A stretch of 64,000 bases of DNA from an uncultured archaeon. Its GTDB lineage: Archaea > Thermoproteota > Nitrososphaeria_A > Caldarchaeales > Wolframiiraptoraceae. A program made the position numbers and the translations under genes. This document shows positions 24,863 through 61,825 of this stretch, one piece after another. Below the pieces are notes generated by a model that was given only the letters and a program-made list of their open reading frames with translations, did not search any database and was not told the DNA's origin. Position 1 is the stretch's first letter. Each line of letters opens with the position of its first letter. The stretch spans positions 9,105 to 73,104 of the forward strand of contig CALJVH010000024.1 in NCBI GenBank assembly GCA_937974645.1, written 5' to 3'.

Positions 24863-25288
24863 TTGTCCGTTGGCGGAAGTTTGGCGAGCTTAGCCCTACT
24901 CATTCCAACGGAAAAGCTAGATAGGCTACATATTGCGGCGAATTTAACCGCGGCAGCTGCTTCAATGGGATGGAGCGTGCACCTCTTCTTCACCTTCTGG
25001 GGCCTGCTGGCCTTGGTTAAGGGAAGGGAGCCTTCAGGCATTACCGGCGATTACATGGCATATGAAAGCTCCTTAAAGAAGGCTGTTGAGTCTGGGGTAA
25101 TGCCCAGATGGGCTGATCTAATAAGGCAGGCGAAACAGCTGGGAGATGTAAAGATTTACGCTTGCTCAGCTACCATGAACCTCCTCTCGATAGATAGAGA
25201 TCAGCTTGAGGATTTTGTTGATGACGTGGTCGGCGCCGCGACATTTCTATCTATAGCCGAGAAATCGGATGTATCCCTAGTAGTCTAA
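24863..25288 (+). CDS. DsrE/DsrF-like (DsrE2/COG2210-type) sulfur-relay protein
   Basis: HLFFTFWGL and the conserved Cys context KIYACSATMNLL. 141 aa, TTG start. It lies directly upstream of a TusA-like gene. Confidence 0.65.
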   Translation: MSVGGSLASLALLIPTEKLDRLHIAANLTAAAASMGWSVHLFFTFWGLLALVKGREPSGITGDYMAYESSLKKAVESGVMPRWADLIRQAKQLGDVKIYACSATMNLLSIDRDQLEDFVDDVVGAATFLSIAEKSDVSLVV

Positions 25289-25305: not shown

Positions 25306-25539
25306 TTGGAGGAGGATAGGGTGGTTCACGTGGTTGATGCAAGATATCTTTCATGCCCGGGTCCACTGCTCGCTCTAGTGAAGAAGTTAAATGAGGTACG
25401 ACGGGGAGGAATTATAAAACTCCTAGCAACAGACCCAGCAACGCCCAGGGATGTGAAGGAGTGGGCTGAAAGAACAGGACACAAACTCCTTGAGTATAAA
25501 AAGGTCGAGCAGGTCTTCGAAATCTACATCGAAGTTTAG
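25306..25539 (+). CDS. tusA: TusA/SirA-like sulfurtransferase
   Basis: 77 aa with the hallmark DARYLSCPGPLL (CPxP) motif. Confidence 0.8.
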   Translation: MEEDRVVHVVDARYLSCPGPLLALVKKLNEVRRGGIIKLLATDPATPRDVKEWAERTGHKLLEYKKVEQVFEIYIEV

Positions 25540-25542
25540 AGG

Positions 25543-26121
25543 GTGAGAGCATGTCAGCCGCTAAGGTTCTCAAAAGAAGAGCATGAGGTGATTAAAGTGG
25601 CTTTGGACGTGCTTGAAGAAGTGTGTCGTAGATTGGAGTCTGGACAAGACGTTGATGCGGATCACCTTGAGAAGATTTTGGAATTTATCAAGGTTTTTGC
25701 GGATAAGTGTCATCATGGTAAAGAGGAGGATGTTTTGTTCCCGGCGATGGAGGAAGCTGGCGTACCGAGAGAAGGTGGACCTATTGGCGTGATGCTTATG
25801 GAGCATGATCTTGGCAGGGGGTTTGTGAAAGAGCTGACTGAGGCTGTTAAAGCATATATGGTGGAAGATGAGAATGCCATCAAAAAGATAGTTGAAAGCG
25901 CTAGACGATACGTGAACCTTCTGAAAGATCACATTTACAAGGAGGATAACATACTTTATCCATTGGCTGAGAGGATCTTATCCTCAGAGAAGCAGAGCGA
26001 GCTCTTAGAAAAATTTGAAGCAATTGAGTATGAAAAAGTCGGGGCAGGAGCTCATGAAAGATTTCACGCATTAGTTCATCGATTAAAAGAATTCCACCTT
26101 CCTGAAGTCAACTTTTATTAG
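25543..26121 (+). CDS. Hemerythrin-like (HHE cation-binding) domain protein
   Basis: H/E-rich repeats: EEHEVIK, CHHGKEEDVLFP, MLMEHDLGR, HIYKEDNILYP. A 3-nt gap follows tusA. Confidence 0.7.
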   Translation: MRACQPLRFSKEEHEVIKVALDVLEEVCRRLESGQDVDADHLEKILEFIKVFADKCHHGKEEDVLFPAMEEAGVPREGGPIGVMLMEHDLGRGFVKELTEAVKAYMVEDENAIKKIVESARRYVNLLKDHIYKEDNILYPLAERILSSEKQSELLEKFEAIEYEKVGAGAHERFHALVHRLKEFHLPEVNFY

Positions 26122-26171
26122 AAACTTCAGTAATAAAGTATTCTAAGGTCTTGAAGCCACGATGCGAGGTT

Positions 26172-26468
26172 ATGGTCTCCAAGTACCTACCCGCTATCAG
26201 GGTGCTTTTATCCATGGAGCTTTCCCAGAAGCATGGTTTAACCGAACAGAGGATCGCAGAGCTATTGGGAACCACCAAAGCGGCTGTGAGCCAGTACTTA
26301 TCGTCGAAGAGGGGGGCAGCGAAAGTTAGGGAATTATTGAAAATTGCAGCTGTTAGAGAGGAGATTTCAAAGATCGCGGATGAGCTGGTGAAGAGTCCTT
26401 TTGAGGATTCTTGCGCTGACATAATCTGCAGGCTATGCCTCGTCCTCAGGAGGGAGAGGAAAATCTAG
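26172..26468 (+). CDS. Small HTH transcriptional regulator with a C-terminal Cys pair (COG2522-like)
   Basis: LTEQRIAELLGTTKAAVSQYLSSKRG helix-turn-helix, C-terminal CADIICRLC. I preferred the ATG at 26172 over the TTG at 26151. Confidence 0.6.
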   Translation: MVSKYLPAIRVLLSMELSQKHGLTEQRIAELLGTTKAAVSQYLSSKRGAAKVRELLKIAAVREEISKIADELVKSPFEDSCADIICRLCLVLRRERKI

Positions 26469-26473
26469 TGTGT

Positions 26474-27061
26474 CTAGCTTCTCCTATCTTTCCACGCCTT
26501 GGCAATCCTCGTGATGAGGGTTGCAACGGAGACGGCATCCTCTCCCAAGAGAACGAAAAGAGGCTCTTTTCCCATCACGGCAGTCTCATAAAATATCCTC
26601 GGAATGAATCCATAACTATCTAAAAGGAACTTTATTTTCCAAGGTATGGATGCTCCCTCCGCTCTTGATATATCTTCCGGCTCCTTGGAGCGGTCCACGA
26701 GGCCGAAGCTGATGTTGTTCTCCTTAGCCCATGTCTTAAGCCATGAAGCTAGTTCTTCGCTCCACGCGAAGTTGATTCCGGACCTGATCTTTTCATCGAA
26801 TTTCATCACTTCTAGGACTATCCTAGCCATGTGGCTGGATGCTCCGAAAGCTGGATACCCGCAAGCCCTTGGTCTTCCATCCACCTTGGTGATCCTGCCA
26901 TCTATCCCCGCCACATCTCTGATGTCTTTAGCATTTGGGAGAGCGTAAACGACATTTACTCTGACCTCCGGTATTAGGTCCACGAACTCGGGACAAGCTT
27001 CCAAGATTTTGACCGCCCTTACAAGATTTCCCAATACCCTGTCCATCTCATCCAGACTCAA
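26474..27061 (-). CDS. ThiN-like domain protein (archaeal thiamine-phosphate synthase / ThiR ligand-domain family)
   Basis: IPEVRVNVVYA...DVAGIDGRI...FGASSHMARIVL...VDRSKEPE...MGKEPLFVLLGEDA matches my recollection of the ThiN (PF10120) pattern. It is the last gene of the 30698-to-26474 operon. Confidence 0.55.
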   Translation of the reverse strand: MSLDEMDRVLGNLVRAVKILEACPEFVDLIPEVRVNVVYALPNAKDIRDVAGIDGRITKVDGRPRACGYPAFGASSHMARIVLEVMKFDEKIRSGINFAWSEELASWLKTWAKENNISFGLVDRSKEPEDISRAEGASIPWKIKFLLDSYGFIPRIFYETAVMGKEPLFVLLGEDAVSVATLITRIAKAWKDRRS

Positions 27062-27068
27062 AATGGCA

Positions 27069-28103
27069 TCACCGCCTCAAAGTGCCAAAGTATGCTTCCC
27101 AGAATGGATCGACTTTGACCGGCTTAAGATCCTCCTCTGAACCATCACTCTCAATAATCACTCTATTTCTAGATCTAGTGAACTCGCCTATAACTGCTGC
27201 CGAGATCTTCTTGCGCTTAAGAGCGCTCATTATTTTTCTCACGTTATTTTTGGAGGCGGAAATTAATAGCGTCCCCTCGCTTATAGATATCAACGGATCT
27301 ATTCCGAAATATTTGCATATCTTTTTAGCCGGCTCCGGAATCGGTATCTTCTCCTTGTAAACCCTTACTCCAACCCCAGAGGCTTCGGCCATCTCATAGA
27401 TGGCGTTAAGCACTCCTCCTTCCGTCGCATCATGCATTGCGCGGCAGTATCTTGCTGCCGTTAAGGCGTCCTCCACAACGCTCATCTGGAAGATTAATCT
27501 CTTGGCCTCTTCCAGCACCTCTGAGCCCAACACGTGTCGAAGCTCTTCCTTGGCTTGGTGAGCGAGTATCCCTGCCGCTTCTATAGCCGCCCCCTTAGTT
27601 ATCAGCAACGCATCACCTGGCCTGGCATTTGATGATGGCCTGAGGTCACTTTTTCTCCCGAATCCTATGACAACACATCCGCCATTAAGCGGATAACTTA
27701 TCCCGGGATACACCCCGGTGTGGCCGCCTATAATGGATATCCCTAGCCTCCTGCACTCCTCATGTATTTGAACCCAAATAGATTGAAGAGTTTCGTAGGA
27801 GGTTCTGGGAGGTAGTAGCAATGATATGAGCATGTATCTCGGCTTGATGCCTAAAACAGCAACATCACTTGCGCATATGTGCACTATGGCCCATCCAAAG
27901 TAGGGCATCAGAACGGGCATTCCGAATGTCGGATCTTCGGCCGCGACCATAACAAAATCCCGAGATACCTTTACCGCGGCAGCATCAACTCCATGGGCAG
28001 GACCTAATAAAATCCTCCGATCCCGCCTACCAAGCTTCGGGAGTATGATTTCGTCAAATACTCTCTTATCCACTTTGCCGATCTTGGGCAGCTCAATGCT
28101 CAT
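27069..28103 (-). CDS. AIR synthase-related protein (PurM superfamily, closer to HypE/SelD than to ThiL)
   Basis: KIGKVDKRVFDEIILPKLG, GVDAAAV, ASDVAVLG..P and IIGGHTGV motifs. 344 aa. There is no N-terminal Cys/Sec where SelD has one. Confidence 0.6.
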   Translation of the reverse strand: MSIELPKIGKVDKRVFDEIILPKLGRRDRRILLGPAHGVDAAAVKVSRDFVMVAAEDPTFGMPVLMPYFGWAIVHICASDVAVLGIKPRYMLISLLLPPRTSYETLQSIWVQIHEECRRLGISIIGGHTGVYPGISYPLNGGCVVIGFGRKSDLRPSSNARPGDALLITKGAAIEAAGILAHQAKEELRHVLGSEVLEEAKRLIFQMSVVEDALTAARYCRAMHDATEGGVLNAIYEMAEASGVGVRVYKEKIPIPEPAKKICKYFGIDPLISISEGTLLISASKNNVRKIMSALKRKKISAAVIGEFTRSRNRVIIESDGSEEDLKPVKVDPFWEAYFGTLRR

Positions 28104-28109
28104 GCAGTC

Positions 28110-29195
28110 TCACATACCCTTTTCGCAGTCTAATCGAATCGTGGCAATGATGTTTTTATAAATCTCTAATGCTTGCTCCCTCGAACTGGCACCCTCAATG
28201 ATAGCTATACCACTCTTCAGCAAGCTGATCTTGAGGTTTCCCCCATACCTAAAAGTTAATCCAAGTTCTCCTAAGATGATAGGCTCAACCTTGTGCTCCC
28301 TTATTATATGTGAGAAAACTTCAGGCGGTAGCTTCATCGATTTCCCGGGATTTATGATGAAGGTCGCAACTCCCTCTCTTTCGCAAACCTCCTCCACCAT
28401 CGGATACTTTTTCGCTTCTTCCCGTATTTTCATTTTCTCCCCGCATGCGGGGCATCCACTAACCCTTTTCACCGGTATAAATTCCATGGACAAGCTCTTG
28501 AGATCGCAGAATAGCAGCTTATCCTGCAATATGGAGCTGGAGTGGATGAGGTAGTTCGTCGCCTCTGAAACTTGAATGGCTGAGATTAGCTGAAGTATTG
28601 CTGGATGAACTCCAATAACCGAGCACGTTGGAAGATCTTCATCAACAACATTAGCGTATAAGCATTCTAGGCAGGCGGTCTCCCCTGGAATTATCAGTGA
28701 TGCAACACCGTATGTTTGGATGGCCGCTGAAAAGAGGTAAGGAGTCCTAACTTCTAGGCACGCCCTATTTATTGCCCTTCTAGTAGTTATGTTATCCAGC
28801 CCATCGATTACCATATCAACACCACTTACCACATCTCTCGCTGTAGTTTCATCAACATATATTGGGAGTGGGTCAACCTCGATGTATGGATTTAATTCCT
28901 TGAGCCTTTTTGCCGCGACCTCCACCTTTGGATATCCAATATCCTTGTAGCTATAGAGGTGTTGCCTGTGAAGATTCGATTTCTCCACAACATCCCTGTC
29001 AACGATCCTTATGTACCCGACCCCCATAGCAGCTAGGCTCACCACGGTTGAGCAACCGAGCCCCCCGATACCTATCACGGCCACTCTCGCCTTCTTCAGC
29101 TCCTCCTGGCCGCCAATACCTATCTCAGGCAAGACTATTTGCCTGGAGTAAAGCTCTATCTCCTCATCACTGAACTCCATCCTTCTCAACCTCAT
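28110..29195 (-). CDS. E1-like ThiF/MoeB-family adenylyltransferase with an extra, non-rhodanese C-terminal domain
   Basis: YSRQIVLPEIG, the nucleotide loop VIGIGGLGC, two CxxC pairs (CLEC at 175, CPAC at 248) and Cys191 in PTCSVIG. Residues 262-361 form an additional domain. The start overlaps the upstream stop codon as ATGA. Confidence 0.8.
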   Translation of the reverse strand: MRLRRMEFSDEEIELYSRQIVLPEIGIGGQEELKKARVAVIGIGGLGCSTVVSLAAMGVGYIRIVDRDVVEKSNLHRQHLYSYKDIGYPKVEVAAKRLKELNPYIEVDPLPIYVDETTARDVVSGVDMVIDGLDNITTRRAINRACLEVRTPYLFSAAIQTYGVASLIIPGETACLECLYANVVDEDLPTCSVIGVHPAILQLISAIQVSEATNYLIHSSSILQDKLLFCDLKSLSMEFIPVKRVSGCPACGEKMKIREEAKKYPMVEEVCEREGVATFIINPGKSMKLPPEVFSHIIREHKVEPIILGELGLTFRYGGNLKISLLKSGIAIIEGASSREQALEIYKNIIATIRLDCEKGM

Positions 29196-29467
29196 CCGCC
29201 AGCCACTGATGGTATTATCGATATTTCATCATTATCTCTTAACTCGGTTTCCATCCCATTCAGAAGTTCAGCGTTTCTCCCATTAATGTATACACTAAAG
29301 ATGCTTCTAAGTCTTCCATTAGAATCCAGTAGCTTAGATCCAAGCTCCGGCCTTATCGAGATTAGAGCGTCTATAACATCCTTCAGCATTGAAGCTTCCA
29401 TCATGATCTCCTTACTGTGCCCCGGAATTGCCAGCGCTCGTGGTAACACGAGCTTAACTAATGGCAA
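29192..29467 (-). CDS. Ubiquitin-like MoaD/ThiS-family sulfur-carrier protein ending in Gly-Gly
   Basis: The C-terminus is ...LRDNDEISIIPSVAGG followed by the stop codon. The probable TTG start at 29467 gives 91 aa beginning MPLVKLVLP and overlaps the ThrC-like stop by 14 nt. The 107-aa track ORF is probably over-extended. Confidence 0.75.
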   Translation of the reverse strand: MPLVKLVLPRALAIPGHSKEIMMEASMLKDVIDALISIRPELGSKLLDSNGRLRSIFSVYINGRNAELLNGMETELRDNDEISIIPSVAGG

Positions 29468-30698
29468 CCTTCGCCACCTCCATAACTCTCTTAAGGCCCT
29501 CACCCGTGGGCTCAATCATAATTGAAGGAGCTACTCTATTCAAGATCGTATGCGGAGCTTTGAGACCGCTTCCGGTGACGAGGCAAACCGTCGTTTCATC
29601 CCTCGAAATAAAACCATGCTCAATAAGTCTCGTTAGAACGGCTACGGAAACCACTCCTCCAGGTTCCGCGAATAACCCCTCAAGCCTAGCTAGATCATGA
29701 ATAGCCTGTAGTATCTCATCGTCAGATGCGGCCACAGCAGCTCCACCACTTCTCCTAATGGCCCGCAGAGCATATACGCCATCACCGGGCTCGCCTATAG
29801 CCAAGCTCTTTGCCACAGTTTCCGGCCTTCCAACAGGAGTTATCCTCTCTTTATCCTCCTCAAACGCTCTAACAATCGGTGAACAGCCGAGCGGCTGAGC
29901 TCCGAATAACCTAGGCTCAGAGTCTACTAATCCCAGCTCCCTCATTTCTCTAAATCCTTTGCCGACCGCCGTTAGAAGGGCGCCACTGGCCATGGGAATA
30001 ACAACATTATCAGGCACATTCCAGTCAAGCTGCTCACATATCTCGAACGCTATAGTTTTCGACCCTTCAACATAATATGGCCTTAAGTTTATGTTAACTA
30101 TGCCAGTGTTACTTTCCTCAGCGAATCTAGATGCGATCCAGTTTGCCTGATCGTATGTTCCAAGAACTGATATAAGGACGGCACCATACGATAAAGCATG
30201 GGAGAGCTTTTCTCGCTCCACATTTTCGGGCACGAAGATGTAGCACGGTAGATTCGCTCTAGCTGCATGAGCAGCAGTGGCGGCCGCCAGATTACCCGTT
30301 GAAGCACATCCGACGGCGTTTAATTGGAATTCCACGGCCTTAGCTACCGCGACATTAGCCGGCCTATCCTTGAAGGAATGGGTCGGATTAGTAATATCCT
30401 CCTTAATGTAGAGATAGCGAATTCCAAGCTGTCTCCCAAGCCTCTCTGACCTTAATAAGCCGGTGAAGCCGGCTCCGAGAGAGAAGATGTTCTTCTCGTC
30501 TACGATGGGAAGAAGCTCGAAGTAACGCCATAAGCTCCTTATCCTCTGTGAAAACACGTCCCTTGACAAATCCAGTCCATCGAGTTCATAGATGACCTCC
30601 AGCGGGCCGAAACACTCTTCACAAAGATTGTGGAAAGCGGGCTCATATTCCCTTCCGCACTCCCTGCATTTTAGGGCGAATCTTCTCAGCGAAGCCAC
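29454..30698 (-). CDS. Threonine synthase-family PLP enzyme (ThrC or a MetM-like homocysteine synthase)
   Basis: 414 aa. N-terminal Zn ribbon CRECGREY..CEEC, the PLP lysine context PTHSFKDRPA, and GNLAAA/ASGAL motifs of the Trp-synthase-beta fold. Confidence 0.75.
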   Translation of the reverse strand: MASLRRFALKCRECGREYEPAFHNLCEECFGPLEVIYELDGLDLSRDVFSQRIRSLWRYFELLPIVDEKNIFSLGAGFTGLLRSERLGRQLGIRYLYIKEDITNPTHSFKDRPANVAVAKAVEFQLNAVGCASTGNLAAATAAHAARANLPCYIFVPENVEREKLSHALSYGAVLISVLGTYDQANWIASRFAEESNTGIVNINLRPYYVEGSKTIAFEICEQLDWNVPDNVVIPMASGALLTAVGKGFREMRELGLVDSEPRLFGAQPLGCSPIVRAFEEDKERITPVGRPETVAKSLAIGEPGDGVYALRAIRRSGGAAVAASDDEILQAIHDLARLEGLFAEPGGVVSVAVLTRLIEHGFISRDETTVCLVTGSGLKAPHTILNRVAPSIMIEPTGEGLKRVMEVAKVAIS

Positions 30699-30889: not shown

Positions 30890-31360
30890 TTATGGCAGCG
30901 CGTAGCCTCCATCTATTATTATGTTCTGCCTCGTTATGAAGTCTGATTTATCGCTCGCTAGAAAAAGCATTAAATAGGCGCCTTCTTCCGGCTTCCCGAA
31001 CCTGCCGAGGGGAATAGCTTGCCTTATCCATTTATAGGTCTCTTCGTTCAAAGCTTTTATGCCTATGCTTCAATGGACCCTGAAGATATAGCGTTCACGC
31101 TTATGCCATATTGAGCTATCTCCAGAGTTATTGTCCTAGTGAGTCCTGCTATCCCGGCCTTGCTCGCTGAGTAATGGACTAGATTCGGAAAGCCCGCTGT
31201 GGATCCCGCGACTGAGGCTCATCTTTGGAAGAACTGCTCTAGCGAAGTTGAAGGCTTCCTCGAGGTTTATATCGAGGGTTACTATCGCCCTTATCACTTA
31301 AGTCGAATATCACAGCGATATAACAACGTCATAATTTAGGTACCCTTTCTTTTGTCCCGG
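30890..31360 (-). pseudogene. Short-chain dehydrogenase/reductase remnant (N-terminally truncated and frameshifted)
   Basis: My translation recovers VIRAIVTLDINLEEAFNFARAVLPKM, then [46 protein letters not shown] followed by stops. In another frame it recovers [39 protein letters not shown] and a stop. There is no Rossmann GxxxGxG part and no ORF of 60 aa or more in the track. Confidence 0.65.
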
Positions 31361-32646: not shown

Positions 32647-33147
32647 TTATAGCATCAACTCTCGGTATGGGATATTCATATCAAATTGTATCTCAGATAT
32701 GTGGAATGCTTTTCCGTGGAACACCACGATATGGCGAGTGGTTTTCGGTGGTAAGAGCTCACCCCTCAGCCCGGCATTCAAGACTAGATCCTTTGAAAGG
32801 TGTTCCCCTCCTCTCCAGCTCAGGACCATGATATTGGGGGAGCGATAGCGCACAAGAAGACATGGAGCTCTTTTGCAGCCCAATCTCTTTAGGGCATCAA
32901 CCCTATGATGCCCATCTATGATAATCAGAGTCTCACGATCAACTACTATCGGCTTCCTGATGAGGCCGCATGACCTAATGTCACCGGCGATCTCTTTGAC
33001 AAGTCCTGGGTCAACGCACTCGTGAGGCCTCAGAATGCTTATAGGTAATATCGCCACGCTGGACGATAGCTCCCGGAGGATATGCTTAAAGCCGTCATTG
33101 TTCACGTATTCCTCAGCGGGCCCGAAGAGAATCATGTTTATTCTCAT
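32647..33147 (-). CDS. ParB/Srx-fold protein with an intact DGHHR motif (candidate SerK-like kinase)
   Basis: LRPHE...IRKPIVVDRETLIIIDGHHRVDALKRLG is the ParB N-terminal/sulfiredoxin-fold signature. 166 aa. It is divergent from a CysK-type gene that carries a paralogous N-domain. Confidence 0.6.
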   Translation of the reverse strand: MRINMILFGPAEEYVNNDGFKHILRELSSSVAILPISILRPHECVDPGLVKEIAGDIRSCGLIRKPIVVDRETLIIIDGHHRVDALKRLGCKRAPCLLVRYRSPNIMVLSWRGGEHLSKDLVLNAGLRGELLPPKTTRHIVVFHGKAFHISEIQFDMNIPYRELML

Positions 33148-33230: not shown

Positions 33231-34562
33231 ATGGTACATCCAAATGAAATAAAGGTCGCAGGTCTGGCATCATTGCGAAGGATCTTCGAGGTGGATCTAG
33301 CTCTCCTCATGGAGGCTTATGGGCGCCTTTTGAAGAATCGACGCCTCGATAAGCCTCTGATAGTCGATAGGGATACGTGGGTGGTAGTTGGCGGCGTCGA
33401 GGTTCTTGAGGCACTTGATCAGCTTTCAGCCCACAAAGCGCCCGTTCTACTGGTTGGCCAGGATCAGCTCGTGATCGAGCGATTATCTGGAGAGAAACTT
33501 ACATTGAATGATTTAATTGAAGAACATCGTACTAAGCGGAGCAGGTTATCACTCAGAGACTTCAGGATTGAATATCTGTTTGATGTTCCATCCATAGATG
33601 TTCCACTGGATGATCTATGCGAAAGCACGAGGCTCGATAGACGTTCTCTCAGGGTTTATGATGACACTTTATCCCTGCTCGTGGAGAATTGGCCGACACC
33701 GCTCGTAAAGCTCAAATCCTTCTCATCTGATGGGAGGTCAGTTTACGCGAAGCTGGAGTCGTTCAACCCGCTCAGCAATAGCGTAAAGGATAGGATTGGC
33801 TGGTCCATGATAATGGATGCTCTGAGCCGCGGGGCGCTCGGAGACTTTCTATATGAGGCCACATCTACGAATACCGGAATAGCCCTGACCTCAATAGCGA
33901 ACGTGCTGGGAAGGAGGGTCAAGCTCTTCATTCCGAAGACAATTCAGAAGGCCAGTGACATTTTCTTGAAAGTCCTCGACGCGGAGGTCATCAGGGTTCC
34001 CGTTAGCCTAACAGTAGAAGCTATCTCCGAGGTCGATGCATTAGCGAGGAGGGACTGCGCAGTACATCTGAATCAGTTCGAGAATGACGCCAACTTCAAG
34101 GTTCACCTCAAGTATACTGCAAGGGAGCTCGACCAGCAGCTAGAGTCCGTCGGAGTCAAGCCCGACTACATTATCGGCGGGCTCGGAACATCCGGCCACA
34201 TAAGCGCCATTTCACTTTACTTCAAGGGCAAGTATGGCGACGGCGTTAAGATATTTGGGGTCCAGCCAGCCCAAAACCAAGTGATCCCAGGGATACGAAG
34301 AATCGAGTCTGGAATGAAGTGGATTCACATGGTTAAGCTTGACGGAATAATAGACATAACACTGGACGAAGCCATTGAAGGGGCAATTGAGGTCGCGCGA
34401 AGAGAAGGCCTCCTAATAGGCCTGAGCGCCGGAGCGGTCTTCAAGGCGTTCAAACGACTCTCTCCAGAAAAGGGGAACGTAGTCTTAGTATTCCCCGACA
34501 GTGGTTACAAATATGCAGAGCAATTCGAGGACTATTTCAAGAGAATTGAACGGCCAGAATAG
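33231..34562 (+). CDS. Fusion protein: degenerate ParB/Srx-like N-domain plus a cysteine synthase / O-phosphoserine sulfhydrylase-type PLP domain
   Basis: The C-terminal roughly 290 aa carry TPLVKL, the PLP lysine SVKDR, STNTGIAL and GLGTSGH. The N-terminal roughly 150 aa align to ORF 32647..33147 (LDKPLIVDRDTWVVVGGVEVLEALDQLSAHKAPVLLV against IRKPIVVDRETLIIIDGHHRVDALKRLGCKRAPCLLV). Confidence 0.7.
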   Translation: MVHPNEIKVAGLASLRRIFEVDLALLMEAYGRLLKNRRLDKPLIVDRDTWVVVGGVEVLEALDQLSAHKAPVLLVGQDQLVIERLSGEKLTLNDLIEEHRTKRSRLSLRDFRIEYLFDVPSIDVPLDDLCESTRLDRRSLRVYDDTLSLLVENWPTPLVKLKSFSSDGRSVYAKLESFNPLSNSVKDRIGWSMIMDALSRGALGDFLYEATSTNTGIALTSIANVLGRRVKLFIPKTIQKASDIFLKVLDAEVIRVPVSLTVEAISEVDALARRDCAVHLNQFENDANFKVHLKYTARELDQQLESVGVKPDYIIGGLGTSGHISAISLYFKGKYGDGVKIFGVQPAQNQVIPGIRRIESGMKWIHMVKLDGIIDITLDEAIEGAIEVARREGLLIGLSAGAVFKAFKRLSPEKGNVVLVFPDSGYKYAEQFEDYFKRIERPE

Positions 34563-35040: not shown

Positions 35041-35148
35041 GCCGGGGTCCCATAGTCTGGTAGTGGGTCGGCCTGGAGACTTTTGCGTTTTGGACTGGAT
35101 AGCCGATGCCCCTTCCGGGGCGCGTGGGTTCAAATCCCACCCCCGGCG
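35041..35148 (+). tRNA. tRNA-Ser (anticodon GGA) with a canonical-position intron
   Basis: Folded by hand. The acceptor stem GCCGGGG pairs with CCCCGGC, and the discriminator is G. The D arm is CCAT/GTGG with GG in the loop. The anticodon stem TCGGC pairs with GCCGA only after a 22-nt insert is removed, and the loop is CTGGAGA. A long variable arm (GCCCC-TTCC-GGGGC) is present. The T arm is GTGGG-TTCAAAT-CCCAC. No CCA is encoded. Confidence 0.85.
35079..35100 (+). other. tRNA intron (about 22 nt, between positions 37 and 38; the boundary is ambiguous by 1 nt)
   Basis: The 3' half of the anticodon stem (GCCGA, 35102-35106) lies 22 nt beyond the anticodon loop. I did not verify a bulge-helix-bulge fold. 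Confidence 0.65.
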
Positions 35149-35329: not shown

Positions 35330-36313
35330 CTATAGATGGTTAAGGTTATAGTATCGCCTGGCTTCCCATGCTCCTCTAAATATGCCAAAAGATTGACTAT
35401 CCCGAATATATTTTTGTCCATCTGAGAGAGAAATTAGGGTAGTTCTAGCCTTGAGTCCGGCAGATGAAGTCAGACTGCCCTTTTCAACATTAGTTATGAG
35501 GAAAACTCGAGCATCTGGGAGATCCATGGGCTTAGCTATCTCAACGTCCACATCAACTCCCGAAATACTGATCCATGGGTGCTGATACTTTCCAGTTTCT
35601 ATTAGCGATTTAGCAACTTTAGTCACCATGTTCGAGAGTATGGCGAATCCTATTCCTGAAAATTCTCAGGTCTGGGAGTATATCGCTGTTGTAACGCCTA
35701 TAACTCTGCCGGAGTAGTCTAGTAAAGGTCCTCCGCTGCTTCCGGGGTTTATTGCCGCATCGAATTATATTACATTAGGAATAATTCTGCCCTCAATAGC
35801 TTCTAGGCATCTATTAAGTTGACTAATAACTCCCGCAGTCAAGCTTGCGGCGAGCTCGTAAGGATTTCTTACAGCGGTTACAAATTGTCTAATCTTGAGT
35901 GTAAAAGAATTTCTCAAGATCAAAGGTTTAAGTATCTTACCTTCCGGCTGTATATTCAACACCAATATGGATCCACTCTTGTAATCGTGGCCTTAAACGA
36001 GCTTTTTATCAAGAGAGAATGCATTAATTCCAATAGCATTCTCAACGACGTAGTAGTTTGTTACAATGTGCCCCAGTTCATTGTATACGAAGCCTGATCC
36101 TTGACGCAATGCATAAATCTTTCCGAAAATCGTCTCCACGACCACCGTTGCTTTGATGAGGACTATGGAATCTTTCACCCTTTTATAAACAAGCTCTGGA
36201 GTGGTTAGGTTTTGCTGCCCTGCTTGACTGGAGATGTTCATCTTAAAAGAGTCAAGATCGTGCTGAATTCCAAATAATCCACTATGGATTTCATTCAATC
36301 TATTCTGACTCAC
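35330..36313 (-). pseudogene. HtrA/DegP-type trypsin-like serine protease, inactivated by in-frame stop codons
   Basis: Three track ORFs (35993..36313, 35765..35965, 35330..35629) share one frame. Reading through gives GSGFVYNELGHIVTNYYVV ... V(TAA)GHDYKSGSILVLNI ... NVI(TAA)[32 protein letters not shown](TGA)EFSGIGFAILSNMV. The GxSGGP serine motif is present, and the catalytic His position reads Tyr. Confidence 0.75.
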
Positions 36314-36571
36314 AAAAAATTACTGTGCTAAGCTAAAGAAGTTTTGGTTAGATAATTAATACGCCGAGAATTGAGGCGAGAGAAAGTGTAAAAGTCATTG
36401 CGAGCAGAAGGAAGTTTTCTTCATCGTCGCTCGAAATTTGATTTTATTCTGTGAGGGTAAAAACCTTCTCATTCTAGACTAGTGTTTCATGAACGTTTCA
36501 TGAAGTTCCTTAATACAGAGTTTTTCTCGATGGTTTCTGCAGTGTTGAGAATGAGCCTTCAAGAACACGCG

Positions 36572-37273
36572 ATGGTGAATGAACAAGGCGAGGCGATTAT
36601 CGAGCTAGTGAACGTTAGAAAAGTCTACGTTTCTGATGGAGTCTCAACAGAGGCTTTGAGAGGTGTTACGCTGATGATTAAAAGAGGGGAGTTTGTAGCT
36701 ATAGTTGGCCCATCAGGTTGCGGTAAATCCACATTGTTACATATCGTGGGTGGGCTTGATAGACCGACGAGCGGCAAGGTAACAGTGGATAACATATGTT
36801 TCAATAAGCTCTCCGATGACGATTTAGCTAGAGTGAGAAATGAAAAAATAGGATTCGTTTTCCAGTTCTATAACTTGGTTCCACACCTCTCCGTTTTTAA
36901 GAACGTTGAATTACCATTAATTGTTAAGGGTACCCCACCTCGCGAGAGAAAGGAAAAGGTTCTGAGCGTTATTGATGAAGTTGGATTGGTTGATAAGGCG
37001 TATTCTAGGCCTACGAGGTTGAGCGGCGGAGAGCAACAGAGGGTCGCAATCGCCAGGGCGTTAATCAATGATCCTACAATAATACTAGCGGACGAGCCAA
37101 CCGGAAACCTCGATTCCAGAAACAAGATAGTGATAGCGGAATTATTTAGGAAGCTTAACGAGAGAGGTAGAACAATACTGGTGGTTACTCACGATTTTGA
37201 GGTCGCCTCATATGCGAGGAGAATTCTGCACATTAGGGATGGTAAAATCGAGCGGGAGGAGGTGAAATCATGA
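36572..37273 (+). CDS. ABC transporter ATP-binding protein, MacB/LolD-like
   Basis: Walker A GPSGCGKST, signature LSGGEQQRVAIARAL, Walker B ILADEPTGNLD. I preferred the internal ATG at 36572 (MVNEQGEAIIEL). The track ORF starts at the GTG at 36482. Confidence 0.85.
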   Translation: MVNEQGEAIIELVNVRKVYVSDGVSTEALRGVTLMIKRGEFVAIVGPSGCGKSTLLHIVGGLDRPTSGKVTVDNICFNKLSDDDLARVRNEKIGFVFQFYNLVPHLSVFKNVELPLIVKGTPPRERKEKVLSVIDEVGLVDKAYSRPTRLSGGEQQRVAIARALINDPTIILADEPTGNLDSRNKIVIAELFRKLNERGRTILVVTHDFEVASYARRILHIRDGKIEREEVKS

Positions 37274-39339
37274 ATCGGAGTCTAGCATTATGCATCATCT
37301 CACAAACGCTGATAATACTGTCGCTGATAACCCCATGCATAAGGGCCGAAACAGGAACAATAGAAATAATAGATGTTCATTGGGGCACATCTGAAAAAGA
37401 ATGGGCGGCGATGAGGGGTGACAAAGCGACACTAATAATCAAATTCAGAAGCTTAATTGAGGATGAAAAAATCTGCGGCCTGAAAGTGATTTTATGGCCG
37501 GTCGACCTTTACAGGCCCTTCCCATTCGCTAGTGTAAAAAATGGGAGTATCGTAACATATACTGATCAGCAAATAAGCTTTGGGGATAAGGCTGAAATCA
37601 CCTTTGACGTAAAAATTAAGGATGACGCCATGCCTGGAACCTATGAAGCCTATCTCTACTTCTTCTACTATGATTGCGGAGATCCAGAGATTCCACTAAT
37701 AATGCGGTTGCAAAAAATAAACATTGACGTTTGGCCTCTTCCAGAATTTAGGTTGCTTAACATAAACTGGCTTAGTAATGAGGGTGTTCAGGTTAATATT
37801 GGGCCCGGAGATGTAAACAGAATACTGTCCGTTACGTTTGCCGTTTCGAAATATTATGAAGTTTCCAATATAGTTGCAACCCTTTACCTTGACGAACACT
37901 TCAGCAATCTTACAGGCGGAAAGGAAGTGAAGTCAAGCTATACCGGACTTATAAGTGAGGGCGAAAGCTTCACGCTAAGGTTCCCGCTAAATGTGAACAC
38001 TGACACTTCGCCTGGCACATATACCCTGAAGCTGGTTATGGAATACTATGATAAATGGCTGACCCAGCAATCTCAAGAAATCTTAATCCCGATCACGGTA
38101 TCTGGTAGCAGCAAGCTCGATCTTTCAATAGAAATCCCTGCATTAACAATTGGATCAACCTCAAACATGAGTATCAAAGTCACTAATGTTGGAAATGCGC
38201 CGATATACTCTCTTAAGCTGACCATTTCTTCGGAAAACTTAGTGGTGGTTGATGGAGAAGTTGATGTCGATGAGCTGCAGCCTGACGACACGTTAAACCG
38301 CTTCTTCTCGGTATGGGTTCCGGTCACATTATCTGAGGGAACATATTCCATTTCAGTTCAAACGGAGTATATTGATTCAAACGGTGTTAAGCAGACCTTA
38401 TCCAAGACTATTAAAGCCTATGTTAAGTCGCAGCCAACGCTCAGCCTGTCAGGGTACACAAAGACTCCCGAGATTGTTTTAGGGGAGAGTCAGAATCTCG
38501 AAATAGTTGTGGAGAACAATTATAACTCCCCAATAAAAGATGTAAGTATTAAAGCAATTTTTGAGGGCATGTCATTGGTATCAGCGAGGGATAGCCTCTT
38601 TTTCTTTGATGAAATCCCTGCTAAGAGTTCTGTTAAGTTAAAAATCCCTGTAACTGCTCCGCCTTCAGCATCGATAGGGACTAATTATGTAAAATTATCA
38701 GCCACTTACCGTAGCCCTTCTGGAAACCTTAGAACTGATGAGATCTCCATTCCAGTAGTAATCAAGCCGGATCTGAAGCTCGAGATCGCCAGCCTCACGT
38801 TCTCCTCCACCTTCGCAGCCCCGGGGGAATCCATTGACATATCAGGCGACATATATAACAGGGGTCTCTCAGCAGGTAAGCTATGCGAGGTTAAAGTGGG
38901 AGCGTCAAGTCCGTTAATCGTAACCGAGGACTCAAGAGATTATATCGGTGATATTTCATCTCTTTCTAAAGCATCGTTTACCGTGACCATCGATGTGGCT
39001 GAGAATGCAAGGCCAGGAAAATATTCAGGCGCTATCATTGTTTCCTGTAGCGATTCATTCGGAAATCTTTATCAGCTTTCAAGGGAATTTGAAATACAGG
39101 TAACGCAAGGCTTCACTTTTCCAAGTCTCACGTATGGAACAATAAGTCCGCCACAAAGAGAAAGTACTGCGGCACGAACGCGTGTCACAACCACCGAAGG
39201 ATTAAGTTATCTATCGATGTTACAACGCCCAATAGCGATTTTACTAATAGTATCCATCATAGCGGGGGCCATAATCGCGTTCTTGTTTGTAAGAAGAAGA
39301 TCGTCGAAGAAGAGGAGACAGGAGAATGAGGCTACTTGA
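37270..39339 (+). CDS. Secreted, C-terminally anchored multi-domain protein with CARDB / COG1361 (S-layer-domain-like) repeats
   Basis: N-terminal signal-like segment, then five recurrences of a PGxYxhxh..Y.D motif (PGTYEAYLYFFYYD, PGTYTLKLVMEYYD, EGTYSISVQTEYID, IGTNYVKLSATYRS, PGKYSGAIIVSCSD). NxG strands are present (VTNVGNAPI), and there is a C-terminal TM helix plus a basic tail RRRSSKKRRQ. The ATGA start overlaps the ATPase gene. Confidence 0.65.
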   Translation: MNRSLALCIISQTLIILSLITPCIRAETGTIEIIDVHWGTSEKEWAAMRGDKATLIIKFRSLIEDEKICGLKVILWPVDLYRPFPFASVKNGSIVTYTDQQISFGDKAEITFDVKIKDDAMPGTYEAYLYFFYYDCGDPEIPLIMRLQKINIDVWPLPEFRLLNINWLSNEGVQVNIGPGDVNRILSVTFAVSKYYEVSNIVATLYLDEHFSNLTGGKEVKSSYTGLISEGESFTLRFPLNVNTDTSPGTYTLKLVMEYYDKWLTQQSQEILIPITVSGSSKLDLSIEIPALTIGSTSNMSIKVTNVGNAPIYSLKLTISSENLVVVDGEVDVDELQPDDTLNRFFSVWVPVTLSEGTYSISVQTEYIDSNGVKQTLSKTIKAYVKSQPTLSLSGYTKTPEIVLGESQNLEIVVENNYNSPIKDVSIKAIFEGMSLVSARDSLFFFDEIPAKSSVKLKIPVTAPPSASIGTNYVKLSATYRSPSGNLRTDEISIPVVIKPDLKLEIASLTFSSTFAAPGESIDISGDIYNRGLSAGKLCEVKVGASSPLIVTEDSRDYIGDISSLSKASFTVTIDVAENARPGKYSGAIIVSCSDSFGNLYQLSREFEIQVTQGFTFPSLTYGTISPPQRESTAARTRVTTTEGLSYLSMLQRPIAILLIVSIIAGAIIAFLFVRRRSSKKRRQENEAT

Positions 39340-40597
39340 CGTACTGTATCTAGCGTTCTCCGCTCTAAGATCTAGGAAGCTCAGGACAACACTGACCATA
39401 CTTGGGATGACCATTGGTCCAGCCCTCTATGTTGCGGCAATCGCATCAACTCAAGGATATGGAGAGGCATTAACACGCAGCCTACAGACGCTAGGTGCTA
39501 ATGTCATTCAGATAATGTCAATGCCGGGAGGGCCGGGGGGTGGAAGCCGGGTGGAATTAACTGATAAAGTACTTCAGAAGTTGTCAGAGGTTGATGGAGT
39601 TGCTACGGTAGTCCCAATGTACTCCATATCCAGCGCTACAATCAGGATTAAAGGTACGACGGTGGAGGTGTCTCCGGGGGGAGAGACGTACAGAATTATT
39701 GCTGTGGATCTGAAGCTTCTTGACGACATTTTCAAAGGGCTTCAGCTAGGTGAAGGGAATCTTTCTGGGACTGGTAGTTCCATAGCAGTGATAGGCGCGA
39801 AGATTTCAAAGCCCGATAACTCAGATCTCCCGGAGATAAATCTCGGCGATGCGATAACCATAGAAGTAACTTCAAGTGGCGGGGAAAAACACGCAATCAC
39901 CGTAAGGGTAATCGGTATATTAAAGGAATATGGGCAGGGTCTTTTCTTCAACCCGGATACAACGATATTTATACCGTTAAGAGCTGGAAAAAGATTGACG
40001 GGCTTATCAACGTATAGTCAGGTGTTCATAATAGCTAGAGATACAAGCTATATTCAACAAATCCAGACCGAGATAACAAATGTTATTGGCAGTAATGTTA
40101 GAGCATTTTCACCGCAGCAAATAGCGCAAACAATTGAGCAGACGATGGGGCAGTTTTCATCATTCCTGGCCTCAATATCCTTTATGTCATTCATAGTCGC
40201 ATTTCTGGCTATAATGACGACAATGTTCACATCGGTCACGGAGAGAGTTAGGGAGATCGGAATTCTGAAAGCAGTGGGATTCAGGACAAAACATATCCTA
40301 GGATTGTTCCTCACAGAGGCTGTGTTGATAGGGCTTATAGGAGGAGCGCTAGGCATTACCGCGGGCGTTATCGGGGCTCATTTCTTCTACCTGCCTTTTG
40401 GGAACATTAGCGCACCATTCGGGCAGCCTGGAAGAAGTCAAGTAGTAACTTTTTCCTTACAGGTAACTCCAAAAATAACCCTTGACCTATTATTGACGAC
40501 ATTGGCGATGGCCATCATGATAGGGTTGCTAGCGGGCCTGATCCCAGCTTGGAGGGCGGCAAAATACCGTCCAGTGGAGGCGCTGAGATATGAGTGA
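39326..40597 (+). CDS. ABC transporter permease, FtsX/MacB family with a large extracytoplasmic domain
   Basis: N-terminal LRSRKLRTTLTILGMTIG, an extracytoplasmic loop of about 230 aa, and a C-terminal FtsX module (REIGILKAVGF...). Overlaps the upstream gene by 14 nt. Confidence 0.8.
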   Translation: MRLLDVLYLAFSALRSRKLRTTLTILGMTIGPALYVAAIASTQGYGEALTRSLQTLGANVIQIMSMPGGPGGGSRVELTDKVLQKLSEVDGVATVVPMYSISSATIRIKGTTVEVSPGGETYRIIAVDLKLLDDIFKGLQLGEGNLSGTGSSIAVIGAKISKPDNSDLPEINLGDAITIEVTSSGGEKHAITVRVIGILKEYGQGLFFNPDTTIFIPLRAGKRLTGLSTYSQVFIIARDTSYIQQIQTEITNVIGSNVRAFSPQQIAQTIEQTMGQFSSFLASISFMSFIVAFLAIMTTMFTSVTERVREIGILKAVGFRTKHILGLFLTEAVLIGLIGGALGITAGVIGAHFFYLPFGNISAPFGQPGRSQVVTFSLQVTPKITLDLLLTTLAMAIMIGLLAGLIPAWRAAKYRPVEALRYE

Positions 40598-47363: not shown

Positions 47364-48656
47364 ATGTTAAGTTACTCGACGATGAGGGAGCGGAGGAAAG
47401 GGTTTCCGAGGCTGACGAGGATTGAGGATGCGCAAGACATGCTGAGAAAGAGAATTCTTCATAGGATAATGGAGGTTGAGGAGATAGAGCTCATAGTGGC
47501 GACCGGTAGGGTCTGTGGCGAGGACGTACGGTCGCCGATGGATTCACCAGTATATGATAGAAGTGCTGTTGATGGGTACGCGGCCGTGGCCGAGGATACT
47601 TTCGGGGCCTCGCCGACGAATCCAGTGGAGCTTAGGCTTGTTGGCAGGATTGAACTCGGCGTGGATCCATCGAGCCTTCCAGAGATTCGGAGAGGTGAGG
47701 TGGTGGAGGTGCAAACCGGGGGGCCGGTTCCGCTGGGGGCGAACGCCATTATCCCATTCGAGCATGCTCGAAGAATCGGCGAGCGGGTAGAGGTGTATGA
47801 GCATGTACGACCGCTTCAGAATATCTCTAGGAGGGGTGAGGATTATCGGAGGGGCGAGATCGTCTTGAGAAGAGGCTGGTTGATTAAGCCATGGCATATC
47901 GCGGCCCTAGCATCACTCGGCTTCCGGAGCCTAAAGGTTCTTAGAAGACCTCGGGTCGCCATTCTCTCTACTGGAGGGGAGCTCATCGAGCCCGGAGAGG
48001 AACCTGTTCCAGGAAAAGTGTATAATTGCACGAGACCTATGCTTCAGGCAATGCTTCTGTCACATGGCGCCGAGCCAATTGATTTGGGCATAGCTCCGGA
48101 TGATGTTGAGCTTATCTCCGAGAGAGTTTCTGAGGAGTTGGCGAGGGTTGATGCCGTGATAGTCACTGGCGGCACAAGCGTTGGGAAGCGTGATCTCGTG
48201 CCGGAGGCGCTTTCAAGGATCAGCGAGATAGTGGTTCACGGCCTCGCGATCAGGCCAGGTAAGCCCGCCGGCTTCGCGACAACATCTGGTAAGCCAATCT
48301 TCATGCTCTCTGGCTTCCCGGTCGCGGCGTTAATAGGGTTTCAAGAGCTCGTCCTCCCGGCCCTAGAACTCATGCTGGGATGCAGGTTTGACCCACCTCC
48401 AAGGATAAGGGGGAGGCTTATCAGGAGAGTAGCATCTCCGCCAGGAGTCAGGACGTATGCTAGGGTTAAGGTCTTCAGGGGCGAAGGCGGAGAGATTTTA
48501 ATCGAGCCGCTGAGGGTCACTGGCTCTGGCATCCTCTCAACTCTTACTCGCGGGAATGGCTTGCTGGTCATTCCGGAAGAGCTCGAGGGCTTTGATGATA
48601 ACTCTGAGGTGGAAGTTATTCTCCTTTCGCCCCTCTTCGAGGGTGATGCGGCTTGA
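47364..48656 (+). CDS. moeA: Molybdopterin molybdenum/tungsten transferase MoeA
   Basis: SPMDSPVYDRSAVDGYA, VQTGGPVP and TGGTSVGKRD motifs. 430 aa. Confidence 0.85.
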   Translation: MLSYSTMRERRKGFPRLTRIEDAQDMLRKRILHRIMEVEEIELIVATGRVCGEDVRSPMDSPVYDRSAVDGYAAVAEDTFGASPTNPVELRLVGRIELGVDPSSLPEIRRGEVVEVQTGGPVPLGANAIIPFEHARRIGERVEVYEHVRPLQNISRRGEDYRRGEIVLRRGWLIKPWHIAALASLGFRSLKVLRRPRVAILSTGGELIEPGEEPVPGKVYNCTRPMLQAMLLSHGAEPIDLGIAPDDVELISERVSEELARVDAVIVTGGTSVGKRDLVPEALSRISEIVVHGLAIRPGKPAGFATTSGKPIFMLSGFPVAALIGFQELVLPALELMLGCRFDPPPRIRGRLIRRVASPPGVRTYARVKVFRGEGGEILIEPLRVTGSGILSTLTRGNGLLVIPEELEGFDDNSEVEVILLSPLFEGDAA

Positions 48657-50584: not shown

Positions 50585-50645
50585 ATATGAGGGCGAAAGT
50601 AAATGGAATAAAGACTTTTATATGTAGCTCTGACATCAACTTATT

Positions 50646-53273: not shown

Positions 53274-53523
53274 CCCTCAGCCTAGTCCCTAGACCATCTA
53301 AATACGTTATCTCCCTTCCATTAACTAGGATCTTCACGTTGGGGTTCTCTCCCACAAGCCTACCAACATCCAGCTTAGATCCGTATTGCTTCCTGAGTTC
53401 TCTGAGCAGGTCCTCTATTGTTGAGCCCTCTGGAAGTTCGAGGTAGAGCACCCCAGTCCCGCCAAATATCTCCCGGAGTGTGGCGAAGGTCCTAATAATA
53501 ACTTTCAAAGAGTCCTCCTCCAT
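53230..53523 (-). CDS. MoaD/SAMP-type ubiquitin-like protein ending in Gly-Gly
   Basis: 97 aa, FATLREIFG near the N-terminus, C-terminus LRDGDSVAFIPPVAGG. Confidence 0.8.
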   Translation of the reverse strand: MEEDSLKVIIRTFATLREIFGGTGVLYLELPEGSTIEDLLRELRKQYGSKLDVGRLVGENPNVKILVNGREITYLDGLGTRLRDGDSVAFIPPVAGG

Positions 53524-61766: not shown

Positions 61767-61825
61767 CAAGCCTAAGGCTGGAAAATGATCCAATTAAAGG
61801 ATTTTGTAAAGCTACATTACTTAAC

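Follow-up and report, generated by a model that had tools for sequence, protein, structure and literature searches.

An archaeal five-gene operon that probably combines a candidate MetM/MetO-type homocysteine synthesis module with a PurM-like/ThiN thiamine cassette

In the CysO/CysM/MoeZ/Mec system of Mycobacterium tuberculosis and the HcyS/HcyF/HcyD/MetY system of Wolinella succinogenes, an E1 enzyme produces a thiocarboxylate on a carrier protein, and this thiocarboxylate is the sulfide donor of a pyridoxal 5'-phosphate (PLP) enzyme. Here we analyse a five-gene operon that joins a PLP enzyme resembling threonine synthase (ThrC) to a ubiquitin-like carrier and its E1, located in a 64,000-nucleotide stretch of an uncultured Wolframiiraptoraceae archaeon (contig CALJVH010000024.1; hereafter the window). 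The closest described system is that of Streptomyces albulus. In the part of Appendix 4 of the GapMind 2026 preprint that deals with Hasebe et al. (2024; Appl Environ Microbiol 90:e01247-24), MetO is a sulfur carrier, MoeZ its sulfur ligase and Mec a protein of its maturation, while MetM is a homocysteine synthase that depends on the MetO thiocarboxylate and acts on O-phosphohomoserine. The preprint states that MetM "is often misannotated" as threonine synthase, and an S-adenosylmethionine (SAM) riboswitch was described upstream of S. albulus metM (mSystems 2025). The Streptomyces route, which a first-pass annotation of the window had invoked, is documented by both sources.

Five minus-strand open reading frames (ORFs) were confirmed at positions 26474-30698, encoding in this order the ThrC-like enzyme, the carrier, the E1, a PurM-superfamily protein and a ThiN-like protein (Table 1). 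The junction sequences bore out the layout of the first-pass annotation in full: its coordinates, the 14-nucleotide (nt) overlap between the end of the ThrC-like gene and the beginning of the carrier gene (TTGCCATTAGTTAA), the ATGA in which the carrier stop and the E1 start overlap (GGATGAGG), and the spacers of 6 nt (E1/PurM-like) and 7 nt (PurM-like/ThiN-like). The TTG start and the IIPSVAGG end proposed for the carrier also held, as the alignment to the SAMP1 profile starts at the corresponding residue and the carrier is 91 amino acids long in the gene calls of two relatives as well (L006 and L007; comparison loci are given as L numbers). Pfam/NCBIfam searches assigned the domains PALP (7e-71), ThiS (2e-10), ThiF (2e-66), AIRS plus AIRS_C, and ThiN (PF10120, 9e-51). 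The same five genes, identical in order and spacing, were present in L006 and L007, which are independent metagenome contigs whose ThrC-like proteins are 74% and 86% identical to that of the window, respectively; the arrangement is therefore real and inherited, and not a chance one. We consider it likely that the five genes are one co-transcribed unit composed of two functionally separate modules, a homocysteine module (genes 1-3) and a thiamine module (genes 4-5). This judgement applies to the two-module explanation as a whole, and it is drawn from gene order, family relationships, conserved linkage and the riboswitches of relatives.

The first protein belongs to the fold-type II PLP enzymes and is homologous to ThrC; four cysteines (C11, C14, C26 and C29) make up an N-terminal Cys4 zinc ribbon, and K110 is the PLP lysine. 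Scanning 185,579 species genomes with an alignment of its relatives gave 80 ThrC-like loci, spread over Nitrososphaerota, Bathyarchaeota, Geoglobus, Chloroflexota and Actinomycetota (four Streptomyces among them). A SAM riboswitch (RF00162) was found immediately upstream of the ThrC-like gene in all seven actinobacterial loci tested. The window protein was 45-47% identical to the products of these riboswitch-linked genes over its full length (315-333 bits), versus 38-40% (177-210 bits) to the solved class-I ThrCs. Likewise, the Streptomyces protein scored 315 bits against the window protein versus 166 bits at most against any solved ThrC. The 85 zinc-ribbon sequences formed a single clade in a neighbour-joining tree, and both tree and bit scores grouped the window protein with metM-type genes, apart from the solved ThrCs.

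The 85 zinc-ribbon sequences, all of which have the N-terminal Cys4 ribbon, were aligned with five solved ThrCs in order to compare the active sites. The clade retains the STGN loop as well as the SFKDR motif of the PLP lysine. The residues that we take to hold the phosphate in ThrC, from the 1UIM and 3AEX work, are T88, N154, S155 and R160 (T. thermophilus numbering). N154 is retained in the ThrC-like protein, and T88 is replaced by L137 in 85/85 clade members. The other replacements are S155 by N204, N157 by R206, R160 by Y209, Q164 by S213 and N188 by S238, plus one inserted residue. The substitutions of T88, S155 and R160 are invariant in 84-85 of the 85 members, while the five ThrCs all keep the ThrC residues; some loci were retrieved with the patterns YYVEGSKT and NPTxSFKDR, so that for these the conservation of Y208-Y209 and S213 is in part a product of the retrieval, and L137, N204, R206 and S238 fall outside both patterns. 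The remodelled pocket would be compatible with an enzyme that releases phosphate and admits the C-terminus of a protein.

The ThrC-like protein could instead be an ordinary threonine synthase, with the carrier and E1 serving molybdenum cofactor (Moco) synthesis, tRNA thiolation or protein modification. It passes the thrC models TIGR00260 (274.6 bits, cut-off 167.1) and NF006050 (310.6 bits, cut-off 303), the solved structures nearest to it are threonine synthases, and a cyanobacterial homolog with threonine-related activities has been reported (mSystems 2025). However, the Streptomyces ortholog with the SAM riboswitch also passes TIGR00260 (268 bits), so this model does not discriminate; NCBIfam release 20 contains no MetM model. 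An ordinary synthase is also at odds with the replacement of T88, S155, R160 and N188 throughout the clade, with a carrier adjacency that holds across phyla, and with the separate MoaD/MoeB pair in the Moco cluster of the window (see below). We regard this explanation as quite unlikely. Cysteate synthase was rejected as an identity for the protein (69 bits, cut-off 325). No second ThrC-type gene was found in the window or in the 170+ fetched loci. The clade, the active-site signature and the gene neighbourhood point to a candidate MetM-like homocysteine synthase.

Among the 76 genome loci with room for a carrier homolog after the ThrC-like gene, 64 encode one immediately downstream. The consensus of these carriers ends in IIPAVAGG, with one to eight residues after the GG in some of them; the window carrier ends exactly at GG, with zero residues beyond, and therefore needs no C-terminal trimming. 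Its scores against SAMP1 and moaD_arch (56 and 44 bits) are similar to those of the Streptomyces MetO-like protein (58 and 43 bits).

In the operon E1, a ThiF/MoeB domain that contains a CxxC...CxxC zinc site and a conserved PTC cysteine is followed by a C-terminal domain with an invariant E-x-C-x-R motif. The E1 aligns end to end with PRK12475 at a score under the cut-off of that model, and the ThiF/MoeB matches in the PDB span residues 7-253 only. No rhodanese domain was detected in it. The zinc-site cysteines, the PTC cysteine and the C-terminal-domain motif are invariant across 28 E1 homologs. The C-terminal domain, modelled with AlphaFold2 (AF2) at a predicted local distance difference test score (pLDDT) of 84, gave TATA-binding proteins (TBPs) as the best Foldseek matches, which were weak (E ~0.02, TMq ~0.5); it is predicted to be a single TBP-like repeat. 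The E1 gene comes next after the carrier gene in the Nitrososphaerota and Bathyarchaeota loci, but not in bacteria.

The long form of the E1 occurs widely, in Bathyarchaeia, Caldarchaeales and also some bacteria. Ammonia-oxidising Nitrososphaerota encode the MetO-like carrier and the long E1 together in one ORF of 440-464 amino acids (L013, L016-L021, L023 and L049; for example L013:7663-9036), located directly after the MetM-like gene and with the junction ...ILPAVAGG|AE..L..RYSRQ. In a published survey, 61 of 98 Thaumarchaeota had a MoaD-MoeB fusion, which was assigned to Moco. The position of the fused ORF suggests homocysteine synthesis instead, and the fusion implies cleavage after the GG.

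The window encodes a second, housekeeping carrier/E1 pair at 47-53 kb, in a Moco cluster where it adjoins two MoeA genes and an aldehyde:ferredoxin oxidoreductase gene. The carrier of this pair passes moaD_arch (69.8 bits, cut-off 49.5), and its E1 consists of a ThiF domain alone. Since Moco synthesis has its own MoaD/MoeB pair, the operon carrier and E1 appear to be dedicated ones, and their assignment as the Moco or SAMP pair was rejected in favour of the better pair in the Moco cluster. Another aldehyde:ferredoxin oxidoreductase gene lies further along the window (Table 1).

Genes 1-3 would thus resemble a MetM/MetO-type homocysteine pathway, whose steps we infer by analogy as follows. The long E1 would adenylate the C-terminal glycine of the GG carrier, and sulfur, possibly from sulfide or from a TusA/DsrE-type relay, would turn the adenylate into a thiocarboxylate. 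The ThrC-like enzyme would eliminate phosphate from O-phosphohomoserine and add the carrier thiocarboxylate at the gamma carbon, and homocysteine would be produced after release from the carrier. In Ca. Hecatella, a gene of the Metalloenzyme/PhosphMutase family (L003:18769-19977, minus strand) is located 7.5 kb from a MetM-like/carrier pair; this family is HomK in GapMind 2026, a homoserine phosphotransferase that makes O-phosphohomoserine.

The last two genes of the operon recur as a unit elsewhere. The ThiN-like protein scored 110 bits against the ThiN domain of Pyrococcus furiosus ThiDN (2pb9) and 84 bits against MJ0236 (2php), and its EVxxN, GRI, GASxH and GKEP stretches align with both. 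Across archaea and bacteria (WOR-3, Chloroflexota, Firmicutes and Odinarchaeia), members of the PurM-like family are ~60% identical. In Odinarchaeia, another archaeon and WOR-3, ThiN comes immediately after the PurM-like gene, and ThrC-like, carrier and E1 genes are absent from the vicinity. We also surveyed 80 metagenome loci of the PurM-like gene. Where the PurM-like protein was at least 52% identical, ThiN was 3-53 nt downstream in every locus with room; in the 41-47% group it was directly upstream or downstream in most. None of these 80 metagenome loci contained the ThrC-like gene or its carrier, and a search for GG carriers in the PurM-like/ThiN loci gave one plausible candidate, in L120 at a distance of 6.5 kb. 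L144 encodes ThiN and the PurM-like protein as a fusion (L144:6401-8038, 545 amino acids, ThiN N-terminal and PurM-like C-terminal). Six of the 43 loci scanned (L093, L095, L098, L102, L107 and L109) have a thiamine pyrophosphate (TPP) riboswitch (RF00059) on the strand of the PurM-like gene, 70-110 nt ahead of it; in these six, the regulated unit looks like just the PurM-like and ThiN genes. The adjacency, the fusion and the TPP riboswitches indicate that the pair is a thiamine cassette.

In this cassette, ThiN would join hydroxymethylpyrimidine diphosphate (HMP-PP) and thiazole phosphate to form thiamine monophosphate (TMP), and the PurM-superfamily ATPase would most likely phosphorylate a phosphate of the thiamine pathway. 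The sources name its family variously "AIR synthase family protein", "hydrogenase maturation factor" and "thiamin-phosphate kinase". The window protein scored below the cut-offs for hypE (TIGR02124, 108 bits against 251.6) and thiL (TIGR01379, 92.7 against 184.15), and also for selD (82 bits). PDB searches gave 39-43 bits to ThiLs and 56-84 bits to HypE. The AF2 model (pLDDT 88) reached template modelling (TM) scores of 0.67-0.79 to ThiL and about the same to HypE; PDB sequence search, AF2 and Foldseek together left ThiL and HypE tied. The hallmark of HypE is a carbamoylated C-terminal cysteine. The PurM-like protein ends in ...AYFGTLRR, without a terminal cysteine, and no hyp genes are nearby. 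The simplest guess is a divergent, ThiL-like thiamine-monophosphate kinase acting on TMP to give TPP, and an HMP phosphate kinase is an alternative. No characterised member of the family was found, and literature searches on ThiN and ThiL returned nothing on a PurM-like partner.

A small helix-turn-helix (HTH) gene converges on ThiN in the window. In L174, a contig without the ThrC-like trio, a gene for an 85% identical protein likewise follows ThiN in convergent orientation; the HTH gene therefore belongs with the cassette, and its product is a possible cassette regulator. HTH homologs of 35-38% identity also adjoin ThiN/PurM-like genes in L139, L141 and L144. Nine unrelated loci (L011, L097, L099, L110, L113-L115, L134 and L144) have a MacB/FtsX-type ATP-binding cassette (ABC) transporter no more than 7 kb from the cassette, with ATPases 40-53% identical to that of the transporter in the window. 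An ArsP-type permease recurs in four loci, and these recurrences may be due to chance.

Next, we compared the distribution of the two modules. Of the 80 genome loci that hold a ThrC-like homolog, none has the PurM-like/ThiN cassette. Beyond the window, all five genes were found together only in L006 and L007, its two closest relatives. Contigs with a PurM-like protein 72-76% identical to that of the window, L174 among them, carry the cassette alone; the loci in which it stands alone include L009-L011 and L172-L174. As the cassette is alone in near relatives and missing from all 80 genome loci, the operon is best explained by a recent joining of the trio with the PurM-like/ThiN/HTH unit in one narrow Nitrososphaerota lineage.

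The first-pass annotation had viewed the locus as a thiocarboxylate-dependent homocysteine module with the PurM-like and ThiN-like proteins as partners, and the full set as a possibly undescribed five-gene system. The clade, the signature and the carrier linkage favour the former claim for genes 1-3, but not for the two partners. The latter did not survive, as PurM-like/ThiN is conserved separately in Odinarchaeia, other archaea, WOR-3 and ~80 metagenome contigs. The five-gene linkage itself is kept in L006 and L007 and is absent elsewhere, where the modules occur separately. A new five-component pathway, in which the PurM-like and ThiN-like proteins act on the carrier or on a homocysteine-derived or other thiol product, would account for the gene coupling and for the complete set being conserved in L006 and L007. 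However, these two are close relatives (ThrC-like proteins 74-86% identical), the PurM-like/ThiN pair occurs in dozens of lineages without the ThrC-like gene or the carrier, in some with TPP riboswitches, and it is already alone at 72-76% PurM-like identity. We consider such a pathway very unlikely; the five-gene arrangement would be a local gene-order event and not the definition of a new system.

The competing proposal of the first-pass annotation, a ThiS/ThiF/ThiN thiamin-type module, fared no better, since the ThrC-like/carrier pair is conserved without ThiN and its riboswitches in actinobacteria are of the SAM and not the TPP type. A related possibility is that the carrier and E1 feed both the homocysteine synthase and thiazole assembly, with the PurM-like and ThiN proteins as true partners in an integrated sulfur-distribution unit. 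The translational coupling of the five genes fits this possibility, as do the long PRK12475-like form of the E1, which some sources label a thiazole-biosynthesis protein, and the long E1 that adjoins the ThiN/PurM-like fusion in L144 together with a ThiI-like PP-loop protein, with similar arrangements in L139 and L133. By contrast, domain searches found no ThiG, ThiH, ThiO or Thi4 among the window ORFs, Nitrososphaerota are reported in the literature to use Thi4 and not ThiS/ThiG, PurM-like/ThiN loci almost never hold a GG carrier, and the cassette is alone even in close relatives and absent from all of the ThrC-like genome loci. We judge a shared carrier of this kind unlikely. In a variant that we rate as rather improbable, the PurM-like protein would be a distinct thiamine-pathway enzyme between HypE and ThiL, and one carrier would supply sulfur to both homocysteine and thiamine, with the long E1, through its TBP-like domain and invariant cysteine, as the common sulfur loader; long E1s encoded next to ThiN/PurM-like fusions in unrelated metagenome contigs hint at such a role.

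Several observations weigh against two separate modules with a MetM-like enzyme and a ThiL-like kinase. Genes for a long-form E1 and for ThiN/PurM-like proteins are close together in L133, L139 and L144, three unrelated metagenome loci, and this E1 type may therefore have some link to the cassette. In the window, the E1 and PurM-like genes are 6 nt apart, a tight coupling that could mean more than chance packing. The metM orthologs used here are Streptomyces genes recognised by riboswitch and synteny, rather than the S. albulus sequence that was characterised. Neither a riboswitch nor any other methionine-linked signal was detected in the window, where the only Rfam match was a tRNA; the SAM riboswitch is probably a trait of bacterial regulation that does not define the pathway. 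A JAMM/Mec-type hydrolase was not found in the window by Pfam searches of ORFs of at least 110 amino acids, and a crude HxH...SxxD scan for JAMM/Mec over all loci returned spurious matches only. Finally, the score of the PurM-like protein falls short of the ThiL cut-off, and the protein resembles HypE at least as closely.

Sulfur-related genes lie near the operon. DsrE-like, TusA, hemerythrin and HTH genes form a tightly spaced plus-strand run that converges on it (Table 1), and L006 holds the DsrE-like/TusA/hemerythrin set downstream as well. Sulfite reductase and TusA genes are located upstream of the trio in L001, L006 and L008. These neighbours would place the trio in a sulfur-assimilation setting and may include a sulfur relay, and the membership of DsrE, TusA and hemerythrin in the operon system is uncertain.

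Other genes of the window are listed in Table 1. A short SerK-like protein that keeps the DGHHR motif is encoded divergently from a CysM-like PLP enzyme, the N-terminal 150 amino acids of which are a degenerate SerK-like domain (32% identity, E 1e-9). The two may be a cysteine pair that makes and uses O-phosphoserine, and could draw on the operon carrier. A different, divergent CysM/SbnA-like gene is directly upstream of the MetM-like gene in L001, L006 and L008. Immediately upstream of the operon is a frameshifted short-chain dehydrogenase pseudogene with its pieces in two frames. A trypsin-like/PDZ (HtrA-type) protease gene seems to be broken into three ORFs, and L006 has an intact Trypsin plus PDZ gene. 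The length of the tRNA match suggests an intron-containing archaeal tRNA.

Table 1. Positions of the operon genes and other features in the window (aa, amino acids).
Feature	Position	Strand	Size	Remarks
ThrC-like gene (MetM-like homocysteine synthase candidate)	29454-30698	-	414 aa	
MetO-like ubiquitin-fold sulfur carrier	29192-29467	-	91 aa	TTG start, C-terminus IIPSVAGG
Long-form E1 adenylyltransferase	28110-29195	-	361 aa	
C-terminal domain of the E1	28113-28436	-	~100 aa	predicted TBP-like repeat
PurM-superfamily ATP-dependent enzyme ('AIR synthase family protein')	27069-28103	-	344 aa	
Stand-alone ThiN-type thiamine-phosphate synthase	26474-27061	-	195 aa	
Small HTH protein	26151-26468	+	105 aa	convergent on ThiN; weak HTH_3/DUF483 matches
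DsrE-like	24863-25288	+		Pfam DrsE_2; candidate sulfur-relay context
TusA	25306-25539	+		Pfam TusA; candidate sulfur-relay context
Hemerythrin	25543-26121	+		Pfam Hemerythrin; candidate sulfur-relay context
Second carrier/E1 pair	52476-53523	-		housekeeping pair
MoaD-type carrier of second pair	53230-53523	-		
Plain MoeB/UbaA-type E1 of second pair	52476-53273	-	265 aa	
Two MoeA genes and aldehyde:ferredoxin oxidoreductase	47364-52469	+		Moco cluster
Another aldehyde:ferredoxin oxidoreductase	59892-61793			
SerK-like short protein	32647-33147	-		
CysM-like PLP enzyme	33231-34562	+		
Short-chain dehydrogenase pseudogene	30890-31330	-		frameshifted
Trypsin-like/PDZ (HtrA-type) protease	35330-36313	-		apparently three ORFs
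tRNA match	35041-35148	+	108 nt	
MacB/FtsX-type ABC transporter	36482-37273	+		
MacB/FtsX-type ABC transporter	39326-40597	+		

If the assignment of genes 1-3 is correct, many archaeal genes annotated as "threonine synthase", among them genes of Nitrososphaerota (ammonia oxidisers included) and Bathyarchaeia, encode homocysteine synthases with a protein thiocarboxylate as sulfur donor. A recognised gap in the methionine synthesis of the affected archaea would thereby be closed; according to the literature, at least one route was still missing in 2018. Curated models currently do not split MetM-like proteins from ThrC; a workable rule would be L/N/R/Y/S at the ThrC positions T88/S155/N157/R160/Q164 plus a downstream GG carrier. 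The widespread PurM-like/ThiN cassette, controlled by TPP riboswitches in some loci, includes an enzyme of unproven function. The main value of the locus would lie in this reannotation rule for archaeal "threonine synthases" and in the uncharacterised PurM-like thiamine enzyme.

With regard to known systems, the cassette resembles ThiDN/ThiN plus ThiL in its conserved ThiN motifs, its PurM fold, its thiamine context with TPP riboswitch control in relatives, and its adjacent or fused pair, which compares with the ThiD-ThiN fusion in ThiDN. It differs in that the partner of ThiN is not ThiD, scores under the ThiL cut-off (93 vs 184 bits) and is at least as HypE-like. The bacterial ThiS/ThiF/ThiG thiazole pathway differs from the locus by the ThiG, ThiH and ThiO domains that the window does not have. 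Class-I ThrCs (T. thermophilus 1UIM, A. aeolicus 2ZSJ and M. tuberculosis 2D1F) share with the window enzyme the fold, SFKDR, the STGN loop and 38-40% identity over the catalytic core, whereas the Cys4 ribbon, the phosphate-site changes, the inserted residue and the sulfur-carrier linkage set the window enzyme apart. The CysO and HcyS systems likewise use an E1-activated ubiquitin-like carrier as sulfide donor for an amino-acid thiol. Their PLP enzymes, however, are of the CysK/CysM fold and MetY (fold type I) and not of the ThrC type, their substrates are O-phosphoserine or O-acetylhomoserine instead of the O-phosphohomoserine expected here, and both systems encode a JAMM hydrolase alongside.

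S. albulus MetM/MetO is the closest counterpart. Its ThrC-homologous PLP enzyme is followed by a carrier of the MoaD/ThiS fold (...AVAGG), a common clade and active-site signature link the two enzymes, and the expected substrates, O-phosphohomoserine and the carrier thiocarboxylate, are the same. Unlike S. albulus, the host of the window is archaeal, without a SAM riboswitch or a nearby Mec-type hydrolase; the carrier ends at GG; the E1 is encoded in the operon and has a TBP-like C-terminal domain, in contrast to a MoeZ-type rhodanese fusion encoded elsewhere; and the operon runs on into thiamine genes. Genes 1-3 would thus represent an archaeal addition to an already known type of pathway, with an unusual E1 of its own.

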